17,622 bases of DNA from Myxococcota bacterium (GTDB lineage Bacteria > Myxococcota > SpSt-1050). The position numbers and the translations under genes are program-made. Below the pieces are notes generated by a model. The model searched no databases and was not told the DNA's origin. It saw only the letters and a program-made list of their open reading frames with translations. Position 1 is the stretch's first letter. Each line of letters begins with the position of its first letter. This document shows positions 2,047-16,993 of the stretch, piece by piece. The stretch spans positions 1 through 17,622 of the forward strand of contig JBMFOP010000067.1 in assembly GCA_049969675.1 (NCBI GenBank), in the 5' to 3' direction.

Positions 2047-2706
2047 TTATATAAATTGTTTGATGAACTTTTTTACATTCTCTCTCCCTCTGATAATACC
2101 ATAGTGCCCTTCACAGAGGATATCTGCATTTAGTTCTGACAAGACTTTGAGACTTGTAATGTAATCTTCTCTATTAGATCCAAACTGACTATTTAGCGGT
2201 CCGTGAATATCCTGTCCGAAGAGAATTCTCTTCTCATCAATCTCATAGAGCACTGCAATGGAGCCAGGTGTATGTCCGGGTATATGATACCACTTTAGAC
2301 CGCTACCCTCAATTATACTTCCTCCTTTACCAACAAGTACGATATCAACATCAACTGGCTCTGCAACGACATTATACCAATTAGCAGCTGTAAGTAATTT
2401 ATCGCCGCTCTCAATCGCATCTACATCCAGTTCATGGGCAATTATCTTATGTGGAAACCTGTCCTTAAACTGTCTTGCACCGCCTATATGATCAATATGA
2501 CAATGTGTCAAAATGATATATCTGATATCCAGAGGGTTAATCTGAGTCTCATATATATTGTCAAGGATTTTATCTACATCTCTGCCAAGTCCTGAATCTA
2601 TAAGTAGTGGGACCTCAAGATTTAGCAAATAGACACAACAATCTCCACCATCACTATATCCACCACCACCTACAAGATATACATTCTCACAAACTTTAAG
2701 AGACAT
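2047..2706 (-). CDS. Metallo-beta-lactamase-fold hydrolase (glyoxalase II-like, substrate unknown)
   Basis: LIDSG, THCHIDHIGG (HxHxDH), PGHTPGS, LFGQD and CEGH motifs. Start overlaps the upstream stop (TGATG at 2704-2708, minus). Confidence 0.93.
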   Translation of the reverse strand: MSLKVCENVYLVGGGGYSDGGDCCVYLLNLEVPLLIDSGLGRDVDKILDNIYETQINPLDIRYIILTHCHIDHIGGARQFKDRFPHKIIAHELDVDAIESGDKLLTAANWYNVVAEPVDVDIVLVGKGGSIIEGSGLKWYHIPGHTPGSIAVLYEIDEKRILFGQDIHGPLNSQFGSNREDYITSLKVLSELNADILCEGHYGIIRGRENVKKFIKQFI

Positions 2707-3548
2707 CAGAATCCCTCAATATTAAAGCAGAAGTGATTTTTATATTCAGCATTAGAAAAGATCTCAACCCGCAGTATTTTAGCCCTTCCATCCTTAAAAG
2801 TAAATCTGCTCTTCTGCCATTCTTTACTCCTTGCGATTGTTGCCGAGTGTACAGCCCTATCATTTATAAAGATATCTGTCTTCACCTCTGGTTTATTAAA
2901 ATCAAATCCAGATGTGGATGCAAGCGCCTGATAAAATACAAAATTACCAGATAGAGCAGGGATTATTTCTGATTCTATAATAATCTTCTTCCCACCTATC
3001 GGATGTGCCCAGATGCACTCAGCCTTCTGCCCATTTACATCCACCACAGACAGTCCCACATATTGCCACCCCATCTCCTGGCATTTATACAAATTATCTT
3101 GATGAGGACACTCCTTCTTGTTTTCAGAGTCAAAGAGAAATACTCTAAGTCTATTGATATTTTCGGATAAATTAAAATCAGGGAGTTTATATTCTTCCAC
3201 TCTGTAATTTCCGACCACGAATCTTTTATTGAGAAGCATCTCATTTAAGATTGGCAGATTTTCGTTCTTGTAGTGGTGCGTGTTCTTTACAATAAATGCC
3301 CTTTTGAATGAAAAGAGATTGATATATTGATTCTCCTGAGTCGTTATCAGTGGGAGTCCGTCCAGTGACAATATGTCATTCTTCTCCCAGTCGGGGAAGA
3401 AGATTACAATGTCATTCTTCTTGAGTTCCTTTTTGAGAGTAAACTTGACCCTCATCAGATCCATCTTAAAAAAATAGAGATAGAAGAAGAGCAATCCCAT
3501 TATGATTATCAGGCTGGCAATTATAAATATTTTCGGTAGATCTTTCAT
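2706..3548 (-). CDS. Single-pass membrane protein with C-terminal Cys-containing beta-sandwich (NPCBM/NEW2-like) domain
   Basis: One N-terminal TM helix (IFIIASLIIIMGLLFFYLYFF); C-terminal C...C...CIWAHP...HFCF pattern. Start placed at 3548 (ATGA overlap with the upstream stop) rather than 3557. Domain call is by eye. Confidence 0.7.
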   Translation of the reverse strand: MKDLPKIFIIASLIIIMGLLFFYLYFFKMDLMRVKFTLKKELKKNDIVIFFPDWEKNDILSLDGLPLITTQENQYINLFSFKRAFIVKNTHHYKNENLPILNEMLLNKRFVVGNYRVEEYKLPDFNLSENINRLRVFLFDSENKKECPHQDNLYKCQEMGWQYVGLSVVDVNGQKAECIWAHPIGGKKIIIESEIIPALSGNFVFYQALASTSGFDFNKPEVKTDIFINDRAVHSATIARSKEWQKSRFTFKDGRAKILRVEIFSNAEYKNHFCFNIEGF

Positions 3549-5197
3549 CTTATACACCTATAACTCATTATTGCCTCAATCAGTTCGCCCCTTTTCATTA
3601 ACACATTACCCTTTTTAAGACAAATCTTATATTCTGATCTTTTATCAAATTCAAATGGCAGATTCATCATCGGCTTTGGGTCAAAAGATCTCTCTATCCG
3701 GATGATCTCTCTATAATTCTCTTCATCTGGCCTTGATGGGAATAACATCGTTATAAATAAAATCCAGATTATGAATATCTCTGCTACTATGATATAACCT
3801 GAATAAAACCTCCTTAATAGAAATACCATACAAAGTAAAAAAATGGTTGCTATAATAAAAAGATAAATTCCTATAGAACTGATTCCGTATATGCCAAAGA
3901 GATTTGCTACGGAATGGGTGATATATCCGTCTGAGATGAGGATATAACAGAAGTGAGCTATGGGATTTAAAAACTGTGGAGGGAAGAAGGGCCAGCTGAT
4001 TGTAGAGACTATTATGTTGTGGACAGAGATTAATAGTAATCCGAAAAATATAGATAAAGCAAAAGGCTTATTCAGATTCTCCTCAAGAAAGAATGCAAGA
4101 GGAACTATCAGAAAGTAGTTTAATGGCATCAGGTGTCTGGCGCCCGCTGCATCTCCTCCTATCCAGTAGCCGAATGAAGATATTAAGAGTGTATAGAATA
4201 GAAAGATGACAAAGATAATTCTCATCAGACTATATTTAAGCCCCGATTTTAGGAAATAGAGGACTGCAAATGTCAGTACCGGAGAGTAAAAAAATAGACC
4301 TCTCTGAGAGCCAAATAGCAGATTAATAATGGCTTTTGGGTCAGGGTATTTAAAACCCAGTATTCCAGAGCTATGAATCTTTGAGAATGTCTCGGAATCC
4401 AGATGCTGGTACCCTGTTGAAATTGGCGAACCGAAACAGGAGTTGAAGTAATACATAATGATTGTAACAGGAATTATTGCTACAGAAGAATATAAAAATA
4501 CCTTCACATCCCTGGTTGAAATAAGTAGATATAGAAATAACAATATGGAAATAAAGAGTGTTGGATATTCAGAAATAAAAGCATACGAGCATAAGAATGC
4601 AGCAGATATGACATAGACTGGCTTCTTCTCCTCTCGTATATAAAATTCAATTAATACAAAGGCTATAAACAATAATGATGCCGAAAATTGATGTCCGAAG
4701 AATAACATTGAGTAAGTAGTTACATAAGTGCCAGGTACAATGGAGAAGATAGAGAGTAAGATAGTGCTATGACTGAGATTATACAGATTAAACAACCTTA
4801 TTAAAAATATGATTGAGATAATGGTAAATAAAAGAGAAGTAAAATATACGGCTATTAAATATTGAGTTTTGAGACCCGGGGTTTTCTTAAAAAAATATTT
4901 GTGGATTAGCCTGCTGATATATAAAGAAGGAACTGCCGCAAATGAGATGCCCGGGGCCTTATCAGAATATATCTTCCCTTTATAGACAGCCCTGTCCCAG
5001 ATAACACCGTAAGTATTTATCTCTTTATCTATATTGAACCTCCCCTCATCTACTATAGCGAGCGCCAGATACAATCTAACCGTCTCATTGGGATTGGGCC
5101 AATCTCTATGAAAGTGTGAAAAATATCCAGAGATGAAGAGGGTAATTAGAATTAAAAAAGATGTCCAAAATTTTGACAAAAACCTATAATTATCCAT
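3545..5197 (-). CDS. Polytopic membrane protein, probable GT-C-fold (ArnT/PMT-like) glycosyltransferase
   Basis: Many hydrophobic segments; first external loop NPNETVR...YSDKAPG after TM1; late-loop WIGGDAAGARHLMP resembles GG..GPRYL.P motifs of GT-C enzymes; TPR-like last helix pair. Confidence 0.65.
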   Translation of the reverse strand: MDNYRFLSKFWTSFLILITLFISGYFSHFHRDWPNPNETVRLYLALAIVDEGRFNIDKEINTYGVIWDRAVYKGKIYSDKAPGISFAAVPSLYISRLIHKYFFKKTPGLKTQYLIAVYFTSLLFTIISIIFLIRLFNLYNLSHSTILLSIFSIVPGTYVTTYSMLFFGHQFSASLLFIAFVLIEFYIREEKKPVYVISAAFLCSYAFISEYPTLFISILLFLYLLISTRDVKVFLYSSVAIIPVTIIMYYFNSCFGSPISTGYQHLDSETFSKIHSSGILGFKYPDPKAIINLLFGSQRGLFFYSPVLTFAVLYFLKSGLKYSLMRIIFVIFLFYTLLISSFGYWIGGDAAGARHLMPLNYFLIVPLAFFLEENLNKPFALSIFFGLLLISVHNIIVSTISWPFFPPQFLNPIAHFCYILISDGYITHSVANLFGIYGISSIGIYLFIIATIFLLCMVFLLRRFYSGYIIVAEIFIIWILFITMLFPSRPDEENYREIIRIERSFDPKPMMNLPFEFDKRSEYKICLKKGNVLMKRGELIEAIMSYRCIR

Positions 5198-5200
5198 ACT
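5173..5200 (+). promoter_or_regulatory. Putative sigma70 promoter for a leaderless SpoIID-family transcript
   Basis: TTGACA (5173-5178), 16-nt spacer, CATACT (5195-5200). Predicted +1 falls on the A of ATG at 5207, and there is no SD before it. Confidence 0.5.
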
Positions 5201-5206
5201 AATAAT

Positions 5207-6433
5207 ATGTCCTTACTACATCATACATTAAAAAATTTCTATAAAATATTTTGCCCGTTTATATTTCTTTTTATTTTTCAATCAACACCTCTTGCCTCCG
5301 AGACCATAAGAGTCCTGCTGCCAGTTACTTCTAACAAGATTAAGATTACCCTTGAAAAAGGGGAGATATTCTCGGATGAGACGGAGTCAGTTGATTGTAG
5401 AGAACTGCAAGAATCAGATGAAATATCTGAAATCATAAATAAGGAGAAGAGAGAGCATAAATTGAGACCTGTTATCGCTGTTGAATCCAGACAGAGCTTT
5501 GACATAAAATTGAATGATGGGATTATGCTAACTGAAAATAGGAATGTATCCGGTACTTCAAAGAGAGAGAATATAATTGACCCCAATAAGAAGTATAGAT
5601 CTCTAATTTTTCACAACCAATCGCCTACTTTGGAGATAAATGGAAACTTTATAAAAGGGGATCTGGAAATTAGATTTGTGTCTGGCACTTTTAAGATAAT
5701 CAATGTAATAGACATAGAAGACTATCTAAAATATACAATCAGTAAAGAGATGAACCCAACCTGGCCCATTGAGGCATTAAAGGCACAAGCAGTCCTGGCG
5801 CGCACCTTTGTGTTAAAGAAGAAATATTTGATGAAGAACTGTCTATATGATATCGGTTTCTCTGCACTTGATCAGGTCTATGGCTCTTTTAAGGAGGATT
5901 ATCTGGAAGTTATACAGGCGGTGTCATCTACATCTGGTGAGGTCTTAAAATATAACGGAGAGATAATAGATGCCCTGTATCATTCCTGTTGTGGTGGCAA
6001 TACATCTTCTGCAAAGGAGATATTTGGATTTGATAAGCCATACCTTACCTCAAGACCCTGTCCCTGTAGAGGTGAATGTCCTTACGGGAAGGGGTGGAGT
6101 TATAAGATGAAGATCTCTGAACTTCAAAAAATTTTTGGATTAAATAAGATTGATAATATAGTTGAAGAGAATAATCAGATTAAAATTATTGGCAACAGGA
6201 AGATCTTGCTCAGCAAGAATGCCTTCAGGGAGAGAATAGGATTCAATCAATTAAAGTCCTCAAAATACTCTCTCACCTTTTCAAAAAGTGAATTAAAGAT
6301 AAGTGGCTCTGGGTTTGGCCATACTGTGGGGCTGTGTCAGTATGGTGCAAAGAGCATGGCTGAAGAGAACAAGGATTATAAGGAGATTCTACTTCACTAT
6401 TTTAATGGTGTAACTATTGAAAAAATTTATTAA
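5207..6433 (+). CDS. SpoIID/LytB-domain protein (peptidoglycan lytic transglycosylase family)
   Basis: Signal-peptide-like N-terminus then TIRVLL; INVIDIEDYL...EM..WPIEALKAQAVLARTF, DQVYG, YHSCCGG.T and GFGHTVGLCQYGA...ILLHYF motifs. Confidence 0.93.
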   Translation: MSLLHHTLKNFYKIFCPFIFLFIFQSTPLASETIRVLLPVTSNKIKITLEKGEIFSDETESVDCRELQESDEISEIINKEKREHKLRPVIAVESRQSFDIKLNDGIMLTENRNVSGTSKRENIIDPNKKYRSLIFHNQSPTLEINGNFIKGDLEIRFVSGTFKIINVIDIEDYLKYTISKEMNPTWPIEALKAQAVLARTFVLKKKYLMKNCLYDIGFSALDQVYGSFKEDYLEVIQAVSSTSGEVLKYNGEIIDALYHSCCGGNTSSAKEIFGFDKPYLTSRPCPCRGECPYGKGWSYKMKISELQKIFGLNKIDNIVEENNQIKIIGNRKILLSKNAFRERIGFNQLKSSKYSLTFSKSELKISGSGFGHTVGLCQYGAKSMAEENKDYKEILLHYFNGVTIEKIY

Positions 6434-6465
6434 AAGAGGTGGTTCCCCCCATAGGCACCACCTTA
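6434..6465. terminator. Probable bidirectional intrinsic terminator between convergent genes
   Basis: AGGTGGT (6437-6443) / ACCACCT (6457-6463) stem. On the minus strand it is followed by CTTTTA; it fills the 29-bp gap between two stop codons. Confidence 0.7.
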
Positions 6466-7311
6466 TTCAATTCTGCCAAAGGTTGGGTTCAGGTCTTTAT
6501 AATTAATCTTCTGACCCATTCTTGCTCGTGAATCTAAGGGAGATTCAATCACACCCCCATTTGTTGATTTGTGAATGAAATAGATTACATCATTCCCATC
6601 CTTATCCTTCTCTTTACGGCTTACAATCCCAATATGTGTTGCATAATCAGTAAGTTTGAGCTCAACTTCCTGTTTTTCCTTCTCTCCCTTCTTTATTTCT
6701 ATTTTTTCTACCTCCTTGAAGAAGACCAGATCCCCGGGTACAACCTCACCGGGATTAACTGAAGTTGACGCCCTTCTAAGTAGCTCTGCCCCTCTATCTC
6801 GCTTTATAAATTCTTTTGATCTGTCCCCATAGACTGCCTTGAGTTTCTTCTCTTCTACCTTCATAAGGGGCATAAGGTCCCTACCACTTTCTGAATAAAT
6901 CATCTTAATAAAGCCGGAGCAATCTGTACTATTCGCCCTGACCATAGTATCGTCCACCTCCACACCGTCCCTTCTCAGATCGCTTACTACTGCCATATAA
7001 TCCTTAATATTTGGCTTACCTTCACTGGAGCCCTTCTTCCTTGCTGCCTCCTCTGAATATTTTTTCTTAAAATCTGAGGTCTTTGTTACAATATCCTTTG
7101 CCTTTTTCAAAGGACTATCAGCCACCTTTTTCTTCTCATCACGATCATTGAGATGGTCAAAGGCTATCTTCTGGGGCATCTGTGTGTTCTGTGACATCAC
7201 CGTAGCTGGCACCGTGCTAATCTTGACATCAGAAAGGCATTCGCTGGAATATGGATAATATTCATATCTATCTTCTGATATTGAATTGCTATTTACTGAA
7301 TTTGTATTCAT
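6463..7311 (-). CDS. NlpC/P60-family cysteine peptidase (putative peptidoglycan endopeptidase/amidase), no signal peptide
   Basis: DCSGFI (catalytic Cys), PGDLVFF, THIGI (His), FIH.S..GGV (third residue). SD GGGAGGAG upstream. Confidence 0.88.
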   Translation of the reverse strand: MNTNSVNSNSISEDRYEYYPYSSECLSDVKISTVPATVMSQNTQMPQKIAFDHLNDRDEKKKVADSPLKKAKDIVTKTSDFKKKYSEEAARKKGSSEGKPNIKDYMAVVSDLRRDGVEVDDTMVRANSTDCSGFIKMIYSESGRDLMPLMKVEEKKLKAVYGDRSKEFIKRDRGAELLRRASTSVNPGEVVPGDLVFFKEVEKIEIKKGEKEKQEVELKLTDYATHIGIVSRKEKDKDGNDVIYFIHKSTNGGVIESPLDSRARMGQKINYKDLNPTFGRIE

Positions 7312-7325
7312 CTTCTCCTCCCTGT

Positions 7326-8327
7326 CTATGCAACTGCATTTTTTGCCTCATCGTTGAATAATTCCTTAAGCAATTTGTCTCTTAGGTTTTGATTCTGCTT
7401 CACAAGAGTGATTACATTATCTCTCCCCTGACCGAGCTGTTCATCTTTATATGAGTACCAGGTCCCTGATTTTGTGATGATATTTCTCTCAAGTGCCATA
7501 TCCACAATCTCCGCATTTACATTTATGCCTTCGCCATAGATAATCTCAAGCATTACCTCCTTAAACGGGGCAGATATCTTATTCTTTACCACCTTTACCT
7601 TTATTCTATTCCCGATGATATTTTCACCCTGCTTGATACTCTCTGCCTTTCTGACCTCAAGCCTTACCGAGGCATAGAATTTGAGGGCATTTCCACCCGT
7701 TGTGGTCTCTGGATTCCCATAGACTACACCTATCTTATTTCTGACCTGATTGATAAAGATTACCATTGAATTAGTCTTGTGTGTGATCGCAGTCAACTTT
7801 CTTAAAGCCTGAGACATTAGCCTTGCCTGAAGTCCCATATGTGAATCTCCCATCTCCCCTTCAATTTCAGCCTTCGGGACCAGCGCCGCCACTGAATCAA
7901 TTACAATCAAATCTGATGAATTATTTCTGATAAGATTGTCGGCAATCTCAAGTGCCTGTTCTCCATAATCGGGCTGTGAGAGCAACAGGTGCCTTGGATC
8001 CACACCGATTCTGGTTGCATAATTGATGTCGAGCGCATGCTCTGCATCAATAAATGTGGTAATCAGTCCAGCCTTTTGTGCCTCTGCAATGGCGTGCAGC
8101 GCAAGTGTGGTCTTTCCAGAGGATTCAGGTCCAAATATCTCAATCACCCTACCCCGTGGAAATCCACCGGAGCCAAGTGCATTATTGAGTGCAATTGAAC
8201 CCGTTGAGATAATTGGAATCTCCTGATGCCTCTCCTCACCCATCTGCATAATTGAACCTTTGCCAAATTGCTTCTCAATTTCAGCAATGATTCTGGAAAT
8301 CTTCTTTGTCCTTTCATCGTTCTTCAT
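7326..8327 (-). CDS. recA: Recombinase RecA (divergent sequence)
   Basis: GPESSGKTT Walker [80 protein letters not shown]. Confidence 0.99.
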
Positions 8328-8338
8328 CTTTTCCTCCC

Positions 8339-9874
8339 TTAGTTAAATTGGTTTCTATCCAATGTTCTATATTGTATTGCCTCTGCAATGTGTCTTCCCT
8401 CAATCGTCTCAGAGTCCTCAATATCTGCAATGGTTCTTGCAAGCTTAATAATTCTATCGTGTGCCCTTGCAGACATATGTAACTTCTCCATTGCATTCTT
8501 GATTAAGGATTGCGCCTCATTATTGAGCTGGCAGTACTTCCTGATCATCCTTGTTGTCATCTGAGAATTGCAATATATATTTTTATGTTTTTTAAACCTC
8601 TCTTCCTGAACCTTTCTTGCCTTAATGACCCTCTCTCTAATCTTTGCGGATGGCTCACCCTCTCTCGTACTTGAAAGTTCCGAATAGTTCACTGGCGGGA
8701 CATCAATATGGATATCTATTCTGTCAAGCAATGGCCCGGAAATGCGAGTGCGATATCTTTGAATGGTTGGATATGAACAGAGACATTTGTGGTTTGGATC
8801 CCCGAGATATCCGCACGGACAGGGGTTCATAGCAGCAACCAGCATAAAATTGGCTGGATATGTAATGGATATAAGCGCCCTTGAGATTGTGACCTCTCTA
8901 TCCTCCATCGGTTGTCTTAAGACCTCAAGAACAGATTTGGAAAATTCAGGGAGCTCATCCAAAAATAGAATACCATTATGTGAGATTGAGACCTCTCCGG
9001 GCCTTGGAACTGAACCCCCTCCTATCAGTCCAACATCGCTGATGGTATGGTGTGGAGACCTGAACGGTCTGTTCCTGATTAATGAGACACCAGATTTGAG
9101 CATTCCCATCACTGAATAGACTTTGGTAGTCTCAAGTGATTCTTCAAAGTTCATCGGAGGGAGAATGGTCCTGAGCCTCTTTGCAAGCATAGTCTTCCCA
9201 GAGCCGGGTGGACCAACCATAATGATATTATGCCCACCGGCGGCTGCTATCTCAAGCGCCCTCTTGGCGTGCTCCTGCCCCTTTACATCTCTAAAATCCT
9301 CGGCGTACTCCACCTCTTGATCCGAGATTATACTATCTGTCTCTTTTTGATATATTATCTCCCTCTCCCCATTTAACCAGTTGATCGCATCTGATAGACC
9401 CTTTACTGGGATAATAGTTATGTTATCCACCACTGATGCCTCAGCCGCATTCTTCTCTGGCAGTACCAGATACTTAAAATTAGCATCCCTTGTCTCAACT
9501 GCTATTGGTAAGACCCCTTTGACTGGTCTCAATTCTCCTGTAAGTGAAAGTTCACCTATCATTACAGATTCCTTTAACTTATCCTCTCTGATACTACCTA
9601 ATGCATAAAGTATTGAAATTGCTATTGGCAGATCAAATTTTGTCCCGTCTTTCTTAATGTCGGCAGGTGCAAGATTGATGGTAATCTTTTTAGGCGGGAT
9701 ATCAAATCCGCTATTCTTTACCGCGCTCTGAACACGGGTCTTACTCTCCTTGACTGATGCCTCCGGGAGACCGACTATTGAGAAGTTCTGAAGACCGATG
9801 GAGATATCCGCCTCAACTTTTATTATTACGCCGTTTATTCCCAGTGTCGTTGCAGAATTGATGACCGAAAGCAT
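8339..9874 (-). CDS. comM: ComM/YifB family Mg-chelatase-like AAA+ ATPase (branch-migration helicase of natural transformation)
   Basis: [100 protein letters not shown] at 9882-9887 (minus). Confidence 0.97.
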
Positions 9875-9903
9875 CTAAAGTACCTCCAATAATTATTTTT
9901 AGA

Positions 9904-9920
9904 TGCAAACAATGTGCCAG
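9904..9920 (-). promoter_or_regulatory. Sigma54 (RpoN) -24/-12 promoter of the comM-recA-NlpC/P60 operon
   Basis: Minus strand reads CTGGCAC-ATTGT-TTGCA, matching TGGCAC-N5-TTGCW with exact GG-N10-GC spacing. Predicted +1 is near 9893, just upstream of the comM SD. Confidence 0.85.
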
Positions 9921-10035
9921 AAATAAAATTTTGGTAGTATCCCATAATTGGGCACAGCGTTATGAAACAATAGAGAAACTCACTGCTGTCCAAAATAAAC
10001 TGGTTTGAGAAGTTATCTACTTATAAAATAAGGAT

Positions 10036-10067
10036 TCTGGACGCGTAAATATATATTTAAATCCAGA
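10036..10067. repeat. Inverted repeat in the divergent intergenic region (candidate regulator or enhancer-binding site)
   Basis: TCTGGA-cgcg-TAAATATATATTTA-aa-TCCAGA: a perfect 14-bp AT palindrome (10046-10059) flanked by TCTGGA/TCCAGA arms. Confidence 0.5.
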
Positions 10068-10178
10068 CTACCAGATTTCCTAAACAGATGTGGTTTGAAA
10101 ATTATTTGATAAATATCATTTTTAGGTCTATAGAAATCCAATCCTGAGTGTTCTCATCAGTGTCCATAAGGAGGAATG

Positions 10179-11110: not shown

Positions 11111-12284
11111 GAGAAGTATAGATGCAGAATATATGATGAGGGCGATCATACTTGCCGAGAATGGAATGGGGAGGACATCTCCAAATCCGATGGTCGGGGC
11201 TGTGATTGTAAAAGATAATAAGATTATTGGTGAAGGCTATCATCAGGCAGCGGGTCAACCTCACGCAGAGATAAATGCGATTAGAAGTGCTAAAGGTTCG
11301 CTTAAAGGCTCTACAATGTATGTTACGCTTGAACCCTGTGTCCATTATGGACGCACCCCTCCCTGTGCAAAGGCGATAGTAGAGAGTGGTATTAAAAGGG
11401 TTGTGATATCCGATGTGGACCCAAATCCACTGGTCAACGGGAGGGGTATCAATTATCTCAGAAGACATAAAATAGAGGTAGATTTTTGTAAAATTAGCCC
11501 TTTTGATTCTCAAACTTATTCACTAAATTGTGGATTCAATAAGTGGATAAAACAGAAGATCCCGTATGTGACACTGAAAGTGGCGATGACGATGGATGGC
11601 AAAATAGCTGATAAAAAGGGCGATTCAAAATATATAACCTCCATTGAATCCAGAAGATTTGTCCATTATTTGAGATACCTATCCGATGCCATCCTCGTAG
11701 GTTCAACCACAGTCAAATCTGATGACCCGCTTCTTAATCACAGGCTTGTCAAATTTGAGAGGAGAAAGGCTATTACGAGAGTGATTCTGGATGGTTCGTT
11801 ATCACTCACTCCAGAATATCGCGTGTTTAAAAGGGACGGGGCAAGGAGGATTCTTTTAACTACAGCAGATATGTTTGATCGCAAGAAGGGAGTTGTAAAA
11901 AGATTTAAAAATATAGGTGTGGAGGTGGTGCCTTTTGAGACAGATTCTTCAAAAATAGAGATAACAGATATACTTGAATATCTCGGGTCAATTAATATAT
12001 TATACCTGTTTGTGGAAGGTGGGCAGGAGGTCTTTACTGACTTCTTGAGCCATAAAGAGGTGGACCTTTTAATTATGATGATATCGCCAAGGCTTCTGGG
12101 CGAAGGTTCAAAGGGATTTTATTTGAAATCAAACTTGATGAATAACAGCAAGACCAATCTCTCTTTGATAAAGTTTATTCCGTCTGGCGGTGATGCCATT
12201 TTGTTCTATTTAAAAGAGGGTTCAGATGTTTACTGGATTGATAGAGTCTATTGGAAGAGTCTCGGGACTCTTAAGAAAGTCTGA
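11103..12284 (+). CDS. ribD: Bifunctional riboflavin biosynthesis deaminase/reductase RibD
   Basis: TSPNPMVGAV, HAE, LEPCVHYGRTPPC, KVAMTMDGKIA, DDPLL, LFVEGG. Confidence 0.97.
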   Translation: MNKRSIDAEYMMRAIILAENGMGRTSPNPMVGAVIVKDNKIIGEGYHQAAGQPHAEINAIRSAKGSLKGSTMYVTLEPCVHYGRTPPCAKAIVESGIKRVVISDVDPNPLVNGRGINYLRRHKIEVDFCKISPFDSQTYSLNCGFNKWIKQKIPYVTLKVAMTMDGKIADKKGDSKYITSIESRRFVHYLRYLSDAILVGSTTVKSDDPLLNHRLVKFERRKAITRVILDGSLSLTPEYRVFKRDGARRILLTTADMFDRKKGVVKRFKNIGVEVVPFETDSSKIEITDILEYLGSINILYLFVEGGQEVFTDFLSHKEVDLLIMMISPRLLGEGSKGFYLKSNLMNNSKTNLSLIKFIPSGGDAILFYLKEGSDVYWIDRVYWKSLGTLKKV

Positions 12285-12864
12285 GGGATTTGAACTTTTG
12301 ATAGAGGATGATCTCCTCTTATCAAATGCAAAGGAGGGAGATTCTGTATCTGTGGATGGGGTGTGCCTGACTATAAAACGGAAGAGAAATAGAGAGGTCC
12401 TATTTGATGTCTCTGAGGAGACAGTAAGGCGAACTATTATAAATGACTATAAAAGGGGGAGAATGGTAAATCTGGAGTCAGCCCTAAAAGTTGACGGGAG
12501 GATGGGAGGTCATTTTGTATCGGGACATATTGATACAAGTGGTGTTGTAAAAGAGAGAGCTGATAGAAGTGAATTTATTGAACTCAAAATATCCTTTGAT
12601 AGCATCTACTCCCCGCTCGTGGTAGAGAAGGGTTCAATTGCGATTAACGGGGTGAGTCTTACCATCAATGAGACAAAGGGAGATTCAGTTAAAATGATAT
12701 TGGTTCCTCATACTATTGAGCATACAAACCTTAAATTTCTGAGAGTGGGCGATAGGGTCAATATAGAATTTGATATGATTGGTAAGTATGTTATTAAGTA
12801 TCTTATGAAGAGTAATACACAGGATTTGCGATTGAAGAGACTTCTTGAAGAGGGAGAGATATGA
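12226..12864 (+). CDS. ribE: Riboflavin synthase (alpha chain; ribC in E. coli nomenclature)
   Basis: N-terminal [47 protein letters not shown]. Confidence 0.98.
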
Positions 12865-14081
12865 AGAGAGGTGAACCATCACTTGAGGTAGTTAAAAAGG
12901 CAATTTCTGATTTTAAGAGGGGGAAGATGGTTATCATTGTAGATGATAAGGATAGAGAGAATGAAGGTGACCTCTGTATAGCGGCTGAGTTTGTAACGCC
13001 AGAGGCTATAAATTTTATGGCAAAATATGGTAGGGGGCTTATATGTCTGGCGATGACCGAAGAGCAGATAAACAAACTTCGCCTCCCTATGATGACTCAG
13101 GATAATAATAGCAAATTTGGTACCGCATTTACTGTATCCATTGAGGCAAAGAAGGGTGTCACCACCGGTATCTCCGCCTATGATAGGGCTACAACTATTC
13201 TGACGGCAATTAGAGATGATGTTACCCCAGATGATATCGTGGTACCGGGACATGTCTTTCCTCTCAAGGCACGTAATGGTGGTGTGCTCTCCCGCACAGG
13301 ACAGACAGAGGGGAGCGTGGACCTCGCAAGACTTGCGGGGCTAAAACCAGCAGCGGTGATATGTGAGATAATGAAGGATGATGGGACAATGGCAAGGATG
13401 CCAGATTTGATAAAGTTTGCCAGAAGACACAGAATGACCATCGTCTCTATTGCAGATATAATCAGATACAGACTTCAGAACGAACTCCTTGTGAAGAGGA
13501 TATCAGAGGCACGTCTCCCGACGGTATATGGCGGTGAATTCAAGATCATTGCATATAAGAACGAATTGGATAACAATGAACATGTGGCTCTGGTAAAAGG
13601 AGAGATAGACCCCAAAGAGCCAATTCTGGTGCGTGTGCATTCCGAATGCCTGACCGGGGATACATTTGGTTCTCTTAGATGCGATTGTGGACCGCAGTTG
13701 CATAGGGCTATGCAGATGATTGAGGAAGAGGGGAGTGGTGTAATAATATACCTGAGGCAGGAAGGGAGAGGGATTGGGCTGGGGAATAAGATAAGGGCTT
13801 ATGCCCTTCAGGAGCAGGGACTTGATACGGTTGAGGCGAATGTGGTGCTCGGCTTTAAACCAGACCTGAGGGACTATGGACTCGGTGCACAGATTATGTT
13901 TGAACTCGGAATTAGAAAGGTTCGCCTTATGACAAATAACCCCAAGAAGATTATTGGGCTTTCGGGATATGGAATTGAGATTGTAGAGAGGGTGCCCATT
14001 GAGATTAAACCCAATAACATAAATAAAGATTATCTGTTTGTAAAAAAGAAAAAAATGGGGCATATATTGAAGTTAAAGTAA
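12861..14081 (+). CDS. ribBA: Bifunctional DHBP synthase / GTP cyclohydrolase II
   Basis: [62 protein letters not shown]. Confidence 0.99.
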
Positions 14082-14571: not shown

Positions 14572-14970
14572 ATGAGAGTGGAATCGAGAGCCCGGGAGCG
14601 CGCGTTTCTATTTGCATTTGCAAAAGATATGGAGGGTAATATACCTGATAATATGGTTGAGGAACTCAATATTGACGATTTAGTTGAGGTAAAGACATTT
14701 GCCGGGCTCTTATTTGAAGGAATGAATAGGCATATTGAGAGTATTGATGAGACTATTAGCAGATATCTAAAGAACTGGACAATAGAGAGACTGAGGGCAG
14801 TGGATAGGTGTATTTTGAGGGTGGCACTCTATGAATTGCTCTTTTATAAAAAAACGCCAGCAAAAGTGGTAATGGATGAATATACTGAGCTTGCAAAGAG
14901 ATATGGGGATACTGATTCTGCAAGCTTTGTAAATGCAGTTCTGGATTCAGTTTATAGGGATAATATATAG
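14572..14970 (+). CDS. nusB: Transcription antitermination factor NusB
   Basis: RARERA, WTIERL..VDR.ILR.A.YEL, P.KVVMDE..ELAKRYG, FVNAVLD; canonical position after ribH. Confidence 0.95.
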   Translation: MRVESRARERAFLFAFAKDMEGNIPDNMVEELNIDDLVEVKTFAGLLFEGMNRHIESIDETISRYLKNWTIERLRAVDRCILRVALYELLFYKKTPAKVVMDEYTELAKRYGDTDSASFVNAVLDSVYRDNI

Positions 14971-15509
14971 TGGAGATAATTTTTAAGGCATTAAAGAAGC
15001 AGAAGATTGTAAAAGATTCCTGTTCTTTGATAATCTGCTTTTATTTTGAAGATGAGAGGCCCCTTAGAAGGCTTGCCGGGATTATTGATTGGAAGGTGGA
15101 TTGTTTCCTATCTCGATTGATAAAAGAGAAGAGACTCTACGGGAGTGAGGGGGAGATTATCCTCTTTGCATCCGAGGAGAGATTCGGGAGCACACCTATA
15201 TTGATATGTGGACTCGGGAAGAAGAGATTCTTTTCATTAAGCACAATCAAGGATGTGGCTGACCTCCTCGTTGGGAGGATAGAGAAGATGAATATTACAA
15301 ATTTTGGATTTGCCCTTCCTGATTTTTCTGATACACATATCGGCTGGCTTGATGGCTTTAATATGTTTATTGAAAGATTTAGCAGATGTGAGAATATTGA
15401 GAGGATCTACCTCTTTGAGGAGAAGGAGAAGGAGCTCCTGATAAGAGGTAATCTCAATGATTCTTTTAGACGAAGATTTTATTTTTCTTCAGAGGAGGAA
15501 ATAAGATGA
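14970..15509 (+). CDS. Stand-alone M17 (leucyl aminopeptidase) N-terminal-domain-like protein
   Basis: FEDERPL..LAG..DW....LSRLI....G..GE..L......ILICGLG pattern of the PepA N-terminal macro-like domain; no catalytic domain. GTG start overlaps the nusB stop by 1 nt. Confidence 0.75.
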   Translation: MEIIFKALKKQKIVKDSCSLIICFYFEDERPLRRLAGIIDWKVDCFLSRLIKEKRLYGSEGEIILFASEERFGSTPILICGLGKKRFFSLSTIKDVADLLVGRIEKMNITNFGFALPDFSDTHIGWLDGFNMFIERFSRCENIERIYLFEEKEKELLIRGNLNDSFRRRFYFSSEEEIR

Positions 15510-16993
15510 AGAGGTTTGTTATTGGGTTATTTTTTGTGGTGCTCTGTACGGCTGGATTTGCAGGTGACTTTGTGGATACGAGAGTCTCATTCATTCTCAG
15601 CAATGATAATATTCTTGTAGGCCCGGGTGAGACCAATCCATCCAATCCAGGAACACGTTTCGGGAGTGCAAGCAGCGGGAATACATTCTTTTATGACAAC
15701 TATGAGACAAAATACACCGGTTATGAATCTCTCTCACATCTCGTGCTCTACAAGAAGATGCCCTCATACTTTGAGGGGCTGACCACGGAGGCATCCCTTG
15801 CACTGCTCGTGATACTTTTGAGCGAATACTCGGTTGGATTTGGTGACTCCGGTTCATATATAAGGTTGACCTACGCCTTTGACAATGAGGAGAAGTCAAA
15901 ACAGAATATACAGATGACACTCTTCCCATATTCTTCAGATAGATTCAGACTCGGCTATTCATATCAGATATCGTGGGGAGGTTCAGACATATTCCCAAAG
16001 CAGGACCCGGATATAAACAAGAAAAATCCAGTTCCGGGAGTAAAACTTCAATTTAACTATGATGACTTTTATGCATTCACAGGTGCAAAGTCTTCACTTT
16101 TGCAGAGGAAGAAAGACCTGAATGACCCAACAGAGTTAGAGGCGTTTTGGGGATTTCTTGGTGGAGGTGGATGGGACAATGGATTTGTAAGGGCGGAGTT
16201 AAATGCTGGTTTCTTTAGAAGAGGGCTCAATCCGAATAATTCTGTTATAGGTGACCCGGTGGATTCAGCAGGGGTCTCGGTGCAGTTAGGACTCCATCAG
16301 GGTTTAAATATTGGTAAGTCCATTGATTTTGCACTATATAAGAATGACCCGAATGAGGTTGTGAACTTTTTTAAGCCCGAGGAATATGGAAGTGGTCTCT
16401 CATGGGTCATTGCAACAGAATTCACAAATATCTACACAAAACTTGAGGATGCGGATAAGCCTGGCAACACAATATACCAGAGGGCGGTGGCAGGAGATAT
16501 TAATATAAAACTCAAATACAACTACACCAGATTATCTCTGGATGCGGTCTATAAAGACCTTGCATTCATCCTTTTTAATGTCCCATCACTCACACCGTAT
16601 CAGAGCATCCCGAAGGAGCTCAATACATCTCCTGCGATATTCTATGCAATATATCTTGACCACCACCTCCCATCTTTGCATCTGACACCGGGTATCTCCT
16701 TTGGAATGGAGTGGCCTGCATACTTTGAGGACAGGACAGGTACAGTCACCGTTGTGAGGTCAATTTCAGATAGAAATTCATTGAAGACGGGAGACGATGT
16801 AACCCCAATAGTCGCTACAAAGCTCTCCTTTAAGCTGGACTTCTCTGAGATGCTTGCTATGATTCTGGAGCTCAGATTTCAGATAGACAATAATATGACT
16901 ACATTCAAGCAGGATATAAATGGAGAGGTAATGCTGGACTATACCGAGCCATATTTATTTGGATTCAATCTGGTATTTCAGGGGAGATTCTAA
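15506..16993 (+). CDS. Secreted protein, probable outer-membrane beta-barrel of unknown function
   Basis: Sec signal MKRFVIGLFFVVLCTAGFA; many amphipathic aromatic-rich strands; C-terminal FGFNLVFQGRF ending in Phe (BAM signal-like). ATGA overlap with the upstream gene. Confidence 0.75.
   Translation: MKRFVIGLFFVVLCTAGFAGDFVDTRVSFILSNDNILVGPGETNPSNPGTRFGSASSGNTFFYDNYETKYTGYESLSHLVLYKKMPSYFEGLTTEASLALLVILLSEYSVGFGDSGSYIRLTYAFDNEEKSKQNIQMTLFPYSSDRFRLGYSYQISWGGSDIFPKQDPDINKKNPVPGVKLQFNYDDFYAFTGAKSSLLQRKKDLNDPTELEAFWGFLGGGGWDNGFVRAELNAGFFRRGLNPNNSVIGDPVDSAGVSVQLGLHQGLNIGKSIDFALYKNDPNEVVNFFKPEEYGSGLSWVIATEFTNIYTKLEDADKPGNTIYQRAVAGDINIKLKYNYTRLSLDAVYKDLAFILFNVPSLTPYQSIPKELNTSPAIFYAIYLDHHLPSLHLTPGISFGMEWPAYFEDRTGTVTVVRSISDRNSLKTGDDVTPIVATKLSFKLDFSEMLAMILELRFQIDNNMTTFKQDINGEVMLDYTEPYLFGFNLVFQGRF

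Follow-up and report, generated by a model that had tools for sequence, protein, structure and literature searches.

A putative activator-gated comM–recA–NlpC/P60 operon in a Myxococcota genome

Can a bacterium keep a recA gene behind a promoter that opens only on command? The recA gene is a textbook LexA/sigma-70 gene, and a sigma-54 promoter is silent until its activator fires. The question is raised by a stretch of 17,622 nucleotides (nt) recorded as Myxococcota bacterium (GenBank assembly GCA_049969675.1, contig JBMFOP010000067.1; hereafter the window), in which a sigma-54-type -24/-12 box precedes comM, recA and a gene for an NlpC/P60 peptidase, all on the minus strand. An original prediction had tentatively read this locus as a signal-activated, SOS-independent transformation operon that co-expresses a cell-wall hydrolase. 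The genome holding the window (G000) has 3.05 Mb, 39% G+C and a completeness of 99.9%, and a hot-springs metagenome DNA run contains 0.83 of the words sampled from the stretch. Our results make it likely that comM, a second recA and a signal-peptide-less NlpC/P60 gene are transcribed as one activator-gated operon.

The sigma-54-type box, the three genes and candidate regulators

The box, TGGCAC-ATTGT-TTGCA at 9919-9904 (minus), matches the sigma-54 consensus at 11/11 specified bases with 0 mismatches, TGGCAC lying at 9919-9914 and TTGCA at 9908-9904, with the GG and GC pairs at 9918-9917 and 9906-9905, respectively. It ends 29 nt ahead of the comM ATG, so that the consensus promoter proposed upstream of this gene stands, with its distance corrected from the 30 nt given originally. 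Across the whole genome, exact TGGCAC-N5-TTGCA is found at 4 sites (5 when TTGCW is admitted), where base composition arithmetic gives about 0.9 per genome, and 4/5 of the TGGCAC-N5-TTGCW sites fall in non-coding DNA, 24-29 nt before an open reading frame (ORF) led by a Shine-Dalgarno sequence. Within the window, shuffles yield 0.35 matches at up to 1 mismatch.

Downstream of the box, a predicted leader (9903-9875, minus) carries a Shine-Dalgarno GGAGG at 9886-9882, and transcription would be expected to start near 9894-9892, as judged from the -12 element. The leader is followed by comM/YifB (9874-8339, minus; 511 aa), which encodes an AAA+ Mg-chelatase-like protein of the branch-migration helicase family TIGR00368, by recA (8327-7326, minus; 333 aa; TIGR02012) and by the gene for the NlpC/P60 (C40) papain-like cysteine peptidase (7311-6463, minus; 282 aa; PF00877). 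Gaps of 11 nt (8338-8328) and 14 nt (7325-7312) separate the three genes, which are therefore too tightly packed for intergenic promoters, and within each gap a GGAGG-type Shine-Dalgarno precedes the next gene. Directly past the stop codon of the peptidase gene, in the 29-nt space that it has in common with a convergent spoIID-like gene, lies an intrinsic-terminator-like hairpin (AGGUGGU...ACCACCU with a U-rich tail; 6420-6463, minus). The fold of 6470-6418 reaches -17.3 kcal/mol (z = -2.99), and 0/200 shuffles were equally stable; a simple terminator scan missed this hairpin because its loop is above the length limit of that scan. The sequence and its folding thus bear out both the close spacing with strong ribosome sites and the single terminator of the original prediction.

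The components that such a promoter requires are encoded in the genome. An rpoN gene is present (G000:C13; 174.4 bits, 503-aa open frame), together with 11 full bacterial enhancer-binding proteins (bEBPs), of which 9 are REC-type, 1 is FHA-like+GAF and 1 is double-FHA; a genome devoid of rpoN, which would have counted against the proposal, is not what was found. As for LexA, no CTG-N10-CAG box occurs in the region upstream of comM (9875-10175). The motif of this organism was deduced solely from the perfect palindrome TACTG-N10-CAGTA that precedes lexA (G000:C45, ~7563-7582; lexA at 7626), which is likely its LexA operator and of the E. coli type. LexA would accordingly seem to have no part in the control of the operon, and the originally proposed signal-activated, SOS-independent mode finds support in the sigma-54-type box, in the presence of rpoN and activators and in the lack of CTG-N10-CAG upstream.

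From these elements we infer that transcription starts from the box, runs through all three genes and is gated by an activator. As long as no signal has activated an enhancer-binding protein, RNA polymerase with sigma-54 would remain in a closed state at the box; the single transcript made thereafter would yield both ComM, the branch-migration helicase, and a RecA dedicated to the module, whose joint action could give a burst of strand exchange and branch migration free of LexA control.

Another perfect sigma-54 box in this genome (G000:C49:11927-11942) is followed by small ORFs and a gene that, judged by eye, encodes a YscJ/PrgK-like lipoprotein (11971-13514), and may mark a type III secretion-like cluster controlled by sigma-54.

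Conservation of the promoter–comM–recA core and the second RecA

The strength of this reading depends on whether the arrangement recurs in relatives. We searched 130-nt windows upstream of comM at 38 loci, namely 37 genomes and 1 metagenome contig, for TGGCAC-N5-TTGCW with GG/GC preserved and up to 2 mismatches; the set omits G018 (N-terminal match absent), G010 and G014 (comM match absent) and G022 (partial comM). The box was found in 29/38 windows, and in 20/38 with no more than 1 mismatch. The background rate is 0.014 per window, as estimated from 45 occurrences of the pattern over 364,690 strand-positions in the fetched loci of the relatives, a count that includes the promoters themselves. 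The conservation of the -24/-12 box that the original prediction had asked for in related genomes is thus observed, and the pattern spans many families and a wide range of G+C, the distant relatives having genomes of 2-11 Mb and fetched comM–recA loci of 59-74% G+C. We consider this conservation a stronger argument for the significance of the box than the chance statistics within the genome.

Closer to the window, the upstream alignment of the genus shows an invariant TCTGG.AC.....TTG.A and the ribosome site within otherwise poorly conserved DNA. At the same position, the boxes read TGGTAC..TTGCA in G001 and TGGAAC..TTGCA in G002, both of the genus, TGGCAT..TTGCA in the metagenome contig L111 and TGGCAC..GTGCA in G004, which belongs to a sister family of the same order. 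Both the gene order comM–recA–NlpC/P60 and the position of the box are kept in the three other genus members (G001, G002 and G003), in L111 and in the sister family, which answers the proposal that synteny be looked for in related genomes.

In the window, comM encodes an unambiguous family member: TIGR00368 scores 653.9 bits against a cut-off of 362.4, and the Lon-like N-domain (PF13541), the AAA+ Mg_chelatase domain (PF01078) and the C-terminal domain (PF13335) are each matched full length. It is the single full-length copy in the genome. A 119-aa open frame elsewhere (G000:C88:656-949), 2.5 kb from a bEBP gene, matches positions 334-431 only of the ComM model (107.5 bits). ComM has been described as a hexameric branch-migration helicase, transformation-specific in Gram-negatives (PMC6158740; bioRxiv 10.1101/2024.02.15.580443), and recruited by DprA in Gram-negative transformation (PMC6158740, PMC12012524, bioRxiv 10.1101/2024.02.15.580443).

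Of the 41 genomes of the phylum surveyed for linkage, 21 have a recA no more than 6 kb from comM and in the same orientation; the two genes are immediate neighbours in 13 of them, and 0.9-5.4 kb separates them in the other 8. When the comM-type recA is 0.9-5.4 kb from comM, it has a sigma-54-like box of its own in 5/7 loci (G012, G016, G033, G035 and G040), and the remaining 2/7 (G008 and G026) carry TTGAA/GTGAA variants. Since the promoter–comM–recA core is phylum-wide, the module is a trait of the lineage, and we take it that the phylum, probably Myxococcota, has long possessed the box–comM–recA core. Of the genus relatives, two records bear NCBI labels that point to Myxococcota and one to Bdellovibrio sp. 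The two units, comM and the comM-type recA, would have been fused into one operon in the lineage of the window. In this regard, our literature search, which covered few subscription journals, returned no paper linking comM or sigma-54 to recA in myxobacteria.

The recA of the window is a full-length family member (TIGR02012, 513.9 bits against a cut-off of 325.3), and its Walker A motif GPESSGKTT and L2 region align with those of the other RecA of this genome. It is a second copy: another recA (G000:C49:19337-20413) scores higher, at 547 bits, and has 62% identity to that of the window. In a maximum likelihood tree of 61 RecA sequences, a split with 99/97 support separates 34 stand-alone copies from 27 others, which comprise all 20 comM-linked copies and 7 unlinked ones; 5 of these seven are second copies and 2 are the only full-length match in their genome. 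The RecA of the window groups with those of its genus and then with that of G004. The tree supports two old RecA types and, being unrooted, leaves the order of events aside; the residue at E. coli RecA position 33, considered as a marker for M. xanthus RecA1 against RecA2, fails to separate the two clades. The original prediction contrasted this locus with the usual sigma-70/LexA control of recA; the box upstream agrees with it, but what carries the box is an old second paralogue rather than the sole recA of the cell under new control.

The other recA, on C49, lies next to polyprenyl-synthase-like and family-A DNA-polymerase-like genes, with no adjacent recX, and no CTG-N10-CAG was found in the 290 nt upstream of it.

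In Myxococcus xanthus, which has two recA genes, the copy corresponding to the comM-linked type is presumably recA1. This gene is weakly expressed and without a LexA box, its product performs strand exchange in vitro, and it is required for recombination of electroporated DNA (PMC7029660).

What could read the box is a matter of candidates. In the window, a possible enhancer region at 9986-10077 (minus), found by eye, contains the half-site-like words GTCCAG, TCTGGA and TTGGACAG, which are similar to the GTCCG/CGGAC dyads that some high-GC relatives have ahead of comM and recA. In G016, comM and recA share nearly the same upstream dyad, CCGGACA-N4-GTCCGG, which, together with the own boxes of the separated recA genes, gives the look of a small regulon under one activator. 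Among the seven best box regions of the genome, a search for common 8-mers gave nothing convincing.

Signalling genes are found beside comM in two relatives. Directly upstream of comM in G002 there is an NtrC-type bEBP gene (L006:1456-2904) whose product has GEQGTEKE as Walker A and VVFDGT replacing GAFTGA, as judged by eye, and which looks unable to hydrolyse ATP or contact sigma-54. Its closest homologue in G000, on C113, keeps GAFTGA, and a bEBP of this type is absent from the fetched comM flanks of G001 and G003. In G016, an FHA-domain bEBP (L049:5767-7656) and a serine/threonine kinase with PD40 repeats (2500-5832) lie between comM and the comM-type recA, and FHA-based signalling genes recur around the comM–recA module, as in G016 and, in the form of FHA-GGDEF genes past recA, in G006 and G032.

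Several observations weigh against a single sigma-54-driven unit. No box at up to 2 mismatches is found in 9/38 upstream windows, one of which belongs to the genus itself: G003 has TGGCAC..TTGAA, with the GC broken (L008:1674-1689). Among these nine, G003 and G033 carry TGGCAC-N5-TTGA[AG], G017, G026 and G036 have 3-mismatch boxes, G039 has a box 188 nt upstream, and G011, G020 and G027 have none. Moreover, related genomes are not independent, so that a binomial p-value overstates the support. As regards the activator, neither neighbour of comM leads to one in G000: the best match to the G002 bEBP is the unlinked gene on C113 (54% identity), and the G016 FHA-bEBP has no clear orthologue. The dyad TGTCCG-N3-8-CGGACA (1 mismatch per half) is found in 6/37 comM upstream regions, none of them in this genus, with a background of ~0.087 per 300 nt in control DNA. 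In M. xanthus, proteomics found RecA1 increased in a lexA mutant (PMC12288472). Finally, the start site, the co-transcription and the dependence on RpoN are all deduced from sequence.

Two further points of this kind concern the promoter directly, and they feed the possibility that the box is a product of chance or a vestige, the genes being read from sigma-70 promoters. A sigma-70-like CTGGCA-17-AATAAT (9/12) overlaps the sigma-54 box, and comM and recA themselves contain several sigma-70-like hexamer pairs, which could act as internal promoters; the DNA is AT-rich, with 17 -10-like hexamers against 9.7 +/- 3.1 in shuffles. However, GG and GC at the exact spacing recur in the 29/38 windows, including those of genomes with 59-74% G+C in which no -10-like hexamer follows, and four of the five genomic TGGCAC-N5-TTGCW sites are placed like promoters. 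We regard a fortuitous or vestigial box as highly unlikely and retain the sigma-54 promoter as the preferred reading.

A recurring variant of the -12 element, TGGCAC-N5-TTGA[AG] or GTGAA, with GA for GC, is seen before comM or the comM-type recA in G003, G008, G026 and G033.

The NlpC/P60 peptidase and the possible uses of the module

The third gene has a narrower distribution than the core that it follows. Its product matches PF00877 marginally (24.5 bits against a gathering cut-off of 23), as its sole Pfam domain, and this is the only gene in the genome with a PF00877 match. The gene stands 12-16 nt past recA in G000-G003, L111 and G004 (5 genomes and 1 metagenome contig), so that its linkage to comM–recA, the absence of which in relatives would have spoken against the proposal, is indeed kept, and this placement is restricted to the order of the window. 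The only other family of this order among the genomes searched is represented by G004, whose 223-aa NlpC/P60 protein, encoded 13 nt past recA, scores 44.3 bits with PF00877 and aligns with the genus profile by hhalign with a probability of 96.8% (E = 2.6e-10); a plain search of the G004 genome with the genus profile returned nothing at E <= 1, despite these Pfam and hhalign matches. Close relatives were found by protein search in 4/41 genomes, all of the same genus-level lineage, and 11 close proteins among 5.8 billion sequences. Of 67 metagenome loci, L111 is the only true relative, with the order comM–recA–NlpC/P60–spoIID and the box TGGCAT-N5-TTGCA; at the remaining 66, neither comM nor recA lies close by.

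Elsewhere in the phylum, the third gene is an FHA-GGDEF cyclase (G006 and G032), and in several genomes recA has no same-strand follower. An unannotated 178-aa ORF past recA in G009, taken up as a candidate relative, proved unrelated. Since the third gene varies by lineage, the hydrolase lies outside the conserved core, and its recruitment to the operon would be confined to this deep lineage.

The predicted structure backs the marginal sequence match. In the AlphaFold2 model (mean predicted local distance difference test score 76.8; 157 residues at or above 90; residues 1-63 disordered) the protein has a papain-like alpha+beta fold, as in peptidoglycan DL-endopeptidases. The best 21 rows of VIA-align by Z are all NlpC/P60 domain structures, nearly all of them peptidoglycan hydrolases (Z 9.4-12.4), the first being 7cfl (Z 12.4, root-mean-square deviation 2.3 over 118 residues). 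Foldseek points to the same families, with probabilities of 0.96-1.00 among the top 10 and weak E-values (best 4e-3), and leads from the Protein Atlas reached 0.91 at most and belonged to unnamed, CHAP and NlpC/P60 clusters. The columns of Cys131 (DCSGF), His226 (THIG) and His247 (FIHKST), which we take from family knowledge to be the catalytic triad, are invariant in 4/4 orthologues, and the DCSGF and FxHxST motifs align with Spr/MepS. The protein is predicted from this model to cleave peptidoglycan peptide stems.

In none of the six positional orthologues did we find a signal peptide, a lipobox or a hydrophobic segment at the N-terminus. Kyte-Doolittle means over 15 residues peak at no more than 1.01 within the first 80 residues of these six, as compared with 1.75 for the signal peptide of the SpoIID-like neighbour and 3.1 for adjoining membrane proteins. 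Leaderless as it is, the enzyme is predicted to be synthesised in the cytoplasm, without a classical export route; Pfam detects no wall-binding or targeting domain in it. Its site of action could be the cell's own wall, neighbouring cells or cytoplasmic muropeptides.

These features bear on the most ambitious part of the original prediction, a coupling of lysis to DNA acquisition, in which the leaderless hydrolase would lyse siblings or prey to free their DNA, or make a passage for the uptake machinery through the wall of its own cell. The fold and the triad are those of peptidoglycan DL-endopeptidases, the gene is the sole PF00877 match in a nearly complete genome, and two families of the order retain it immediately after recA. 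Genes for ComEC, DprA and a ComEA-like protein are present, and a precedent exists in the pneumococcal cinA-recA-dinF-lytA operon, which is read from a ComX-dependent promoter and whose leaderless LytA acts in fratricide (PMC12029793). In this regard, leaderless pneumococcal LytA indicates that a missing leader does not exclude a lytic role (PMC12029793).

On the other hand, an export signal of any kind is absent from all six proteins, there is neither a Pfam wall-binding or targeting domain nor an immunity-like small gene alongside, the third gene differs or is missing elsewhere, and 0/66 other metagenome NlpC/P60 loci lie near comM or recA. The GG-N10-GC box was found in 0/3 cases within 300-350 nt upstream of dprA, comEC and comEA, and TfoX_N was not found in the genome. 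Co-regulation with DNA-uptake genes, by which a fratricin would be recognised, is not apparent, the gene being co-located with comM and recA only. Taken together, neither the transformation regulon nor the lytic role of the hydrolase has gained support so far, and coupled lysis and DNA acquisition appears unlikely to us.

In G021, a TfoX_N-domain gene, a relative of competence regulators (L041:7185-7694), is located two genes from comM–recA on the opposite strand.

The same lack of boxes before the uptake genes dprA, comEC and comEA would suit a module for DNA damage or stress, in which ComM and RecA mend the cell's own chromosome and the NlpC/P60 protein is a cytoplasmic passenger, engaged for example in YkfC-like murein-peptide recycling. 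In M. xanthus, recA1 is induced late by ultraviolet (UV) light and is needed for UV survival (PMC7029660), and RecA1 protein increases after mitomycin C (PMC12288472); in pneumococci, competence-induced recombination genes shield cells from genotoxic stress (PMC11708029). The lack of an export signal fits a cytoplasmic role, and YkfC-type gamma-D-Glu-diamino-acid endopeptidases rank near the top of the fold comparison (2evr, Z 12.2; 3h41, Z 11.7). YkfC-type enzymes, however, have SH3b domains, which Pfam did not find in the protein of the window, and one would not expect the 12-16-nt spacing from recA to persist in two families if the gene were a passenger. Furthermore, ComM is described as transformation-specific where it has been studied (PMC6158740; bioRxiv 10.1101/2024.02.15.580443). 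We hold the repair module to be possible but less likely than not.

The best-supported reading is that the core is an activator-gated recombination module, whose substrate may be imported DNA or the cell's own damaged DNA. For the NlpC/P60 protein three roles are conceivable: autolysis or fratricide in the manner of LytA, local remodelling of the wall, or, as a passenger of the operon, cleavage of muropeptides in the cytoplasm. A bolder version, in which one activator signal in this hot-spring lineage of probable myxobacteria both arms recombination and triggers wall cleavage by the sole, leaderless NlpC/P60 enzyme so as to free or admit DNA, strikes us as a long shot; if true, it would be the counterpart, in a Gram-negative and with enhancer dependence, of the autolysis that pneumococci couple to competence.

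A second RecA and ComM with a sigma-54 box across the phylum point to a recombination switch apart from SOS, and offer a testable explanation for the control of the LexA-box-less recA in myxobacteria. Since M. xanthus is genetically tractable, the promoter, the activator and the signal should be findable by standard genetics. The peptidase, as an add-on, raises the possibility that wall cleavage is coupled to recombination.

Around the operon, the convergent SpoIID/LytB-domain gene (5207-6433, plus) encodes a protein with a signal peptide; this neighbour is kept in the genus-level relatives G001-G003 and in L111, and not in G004. Farther away, past nusB, a 179-aa ORF (14970-15509, plus) has only the N-terminal domain of an M17 leucyl aminopeptidase, and a 495-aa ORF overlapping its end (15506-16993, plus) has no Pfam or NCBIfam match.

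Comparison with known systems

The ComM proteins of Vibrio cholerae and Acinetobacter baylyi belong to the same TIGR00368 family and share the three-domain build of the protein in the window. Their genes are under TfoX/CRP-S or similar competence regulons and, to our knowledge, are not joined to recA. In contrast, comM of the window heads an operon with recA, in a genome in which TfoX_N was not found.

With regard to RecA, M. xanthus recA1 (MXAN_1441) and recA2 (MXAN_1388) are likewise two paralogues, with 64.6% identity as compared with 62% here (PMC7029660); one copy is without a LexA box, and the phylum-mates show the old split into two RecA types. Whereas the paralogue of the window shares its operon with comM and a peptidase gene, both M. 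xanthus genes are described as monocistronic with sigma-70-type -35/-10 elements, and that paper mentions neither comM nor sigma-54 (PMC7029660).

Regarding the promoter, the PexR-dependent katB and ahpC genes of M. xanthus also have GG-N10-GC promoters that require a bEBP (PMC12754779), and dyad repeats stand upstream in some relatives of the window. The PexR sites are CACCG-n6-CGGTG (PMC12754779), whereas the dyads of these relatives are of the GTCCG/CGGAC type, and PexR serves peroxide defence genes instead of recombination genes.

The closest parallel in overall design is the cinA-recA-dinF-lytA operon of S. pneumoniae, in which recA is co-transcribed from an alternative-sigma promoter, as predicted here, and a leaderless peptidoglycan hydrolase comes last, before one strong terminator (PMC12029793). 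This formal likeness has its limits. The pneumococcal operon is read through a Cin-box by ComX/sigma-X, of the sigma-70 family, whereas sigma-54 requires an ATP-driven activator; the helper genes are cinA and dinF there and comM here; LytA combines amidase_2 with choline-binding repeats, whereas the enzyme of the window is an NlpC/P60 cysteine peptidase; and the recA of the window is a second paralogue in a Gram-negative host. What we describe is thus a variant that combines two known themes, sigma-54 regulons and alternative-sigma recA operons ending in a hydrolase.

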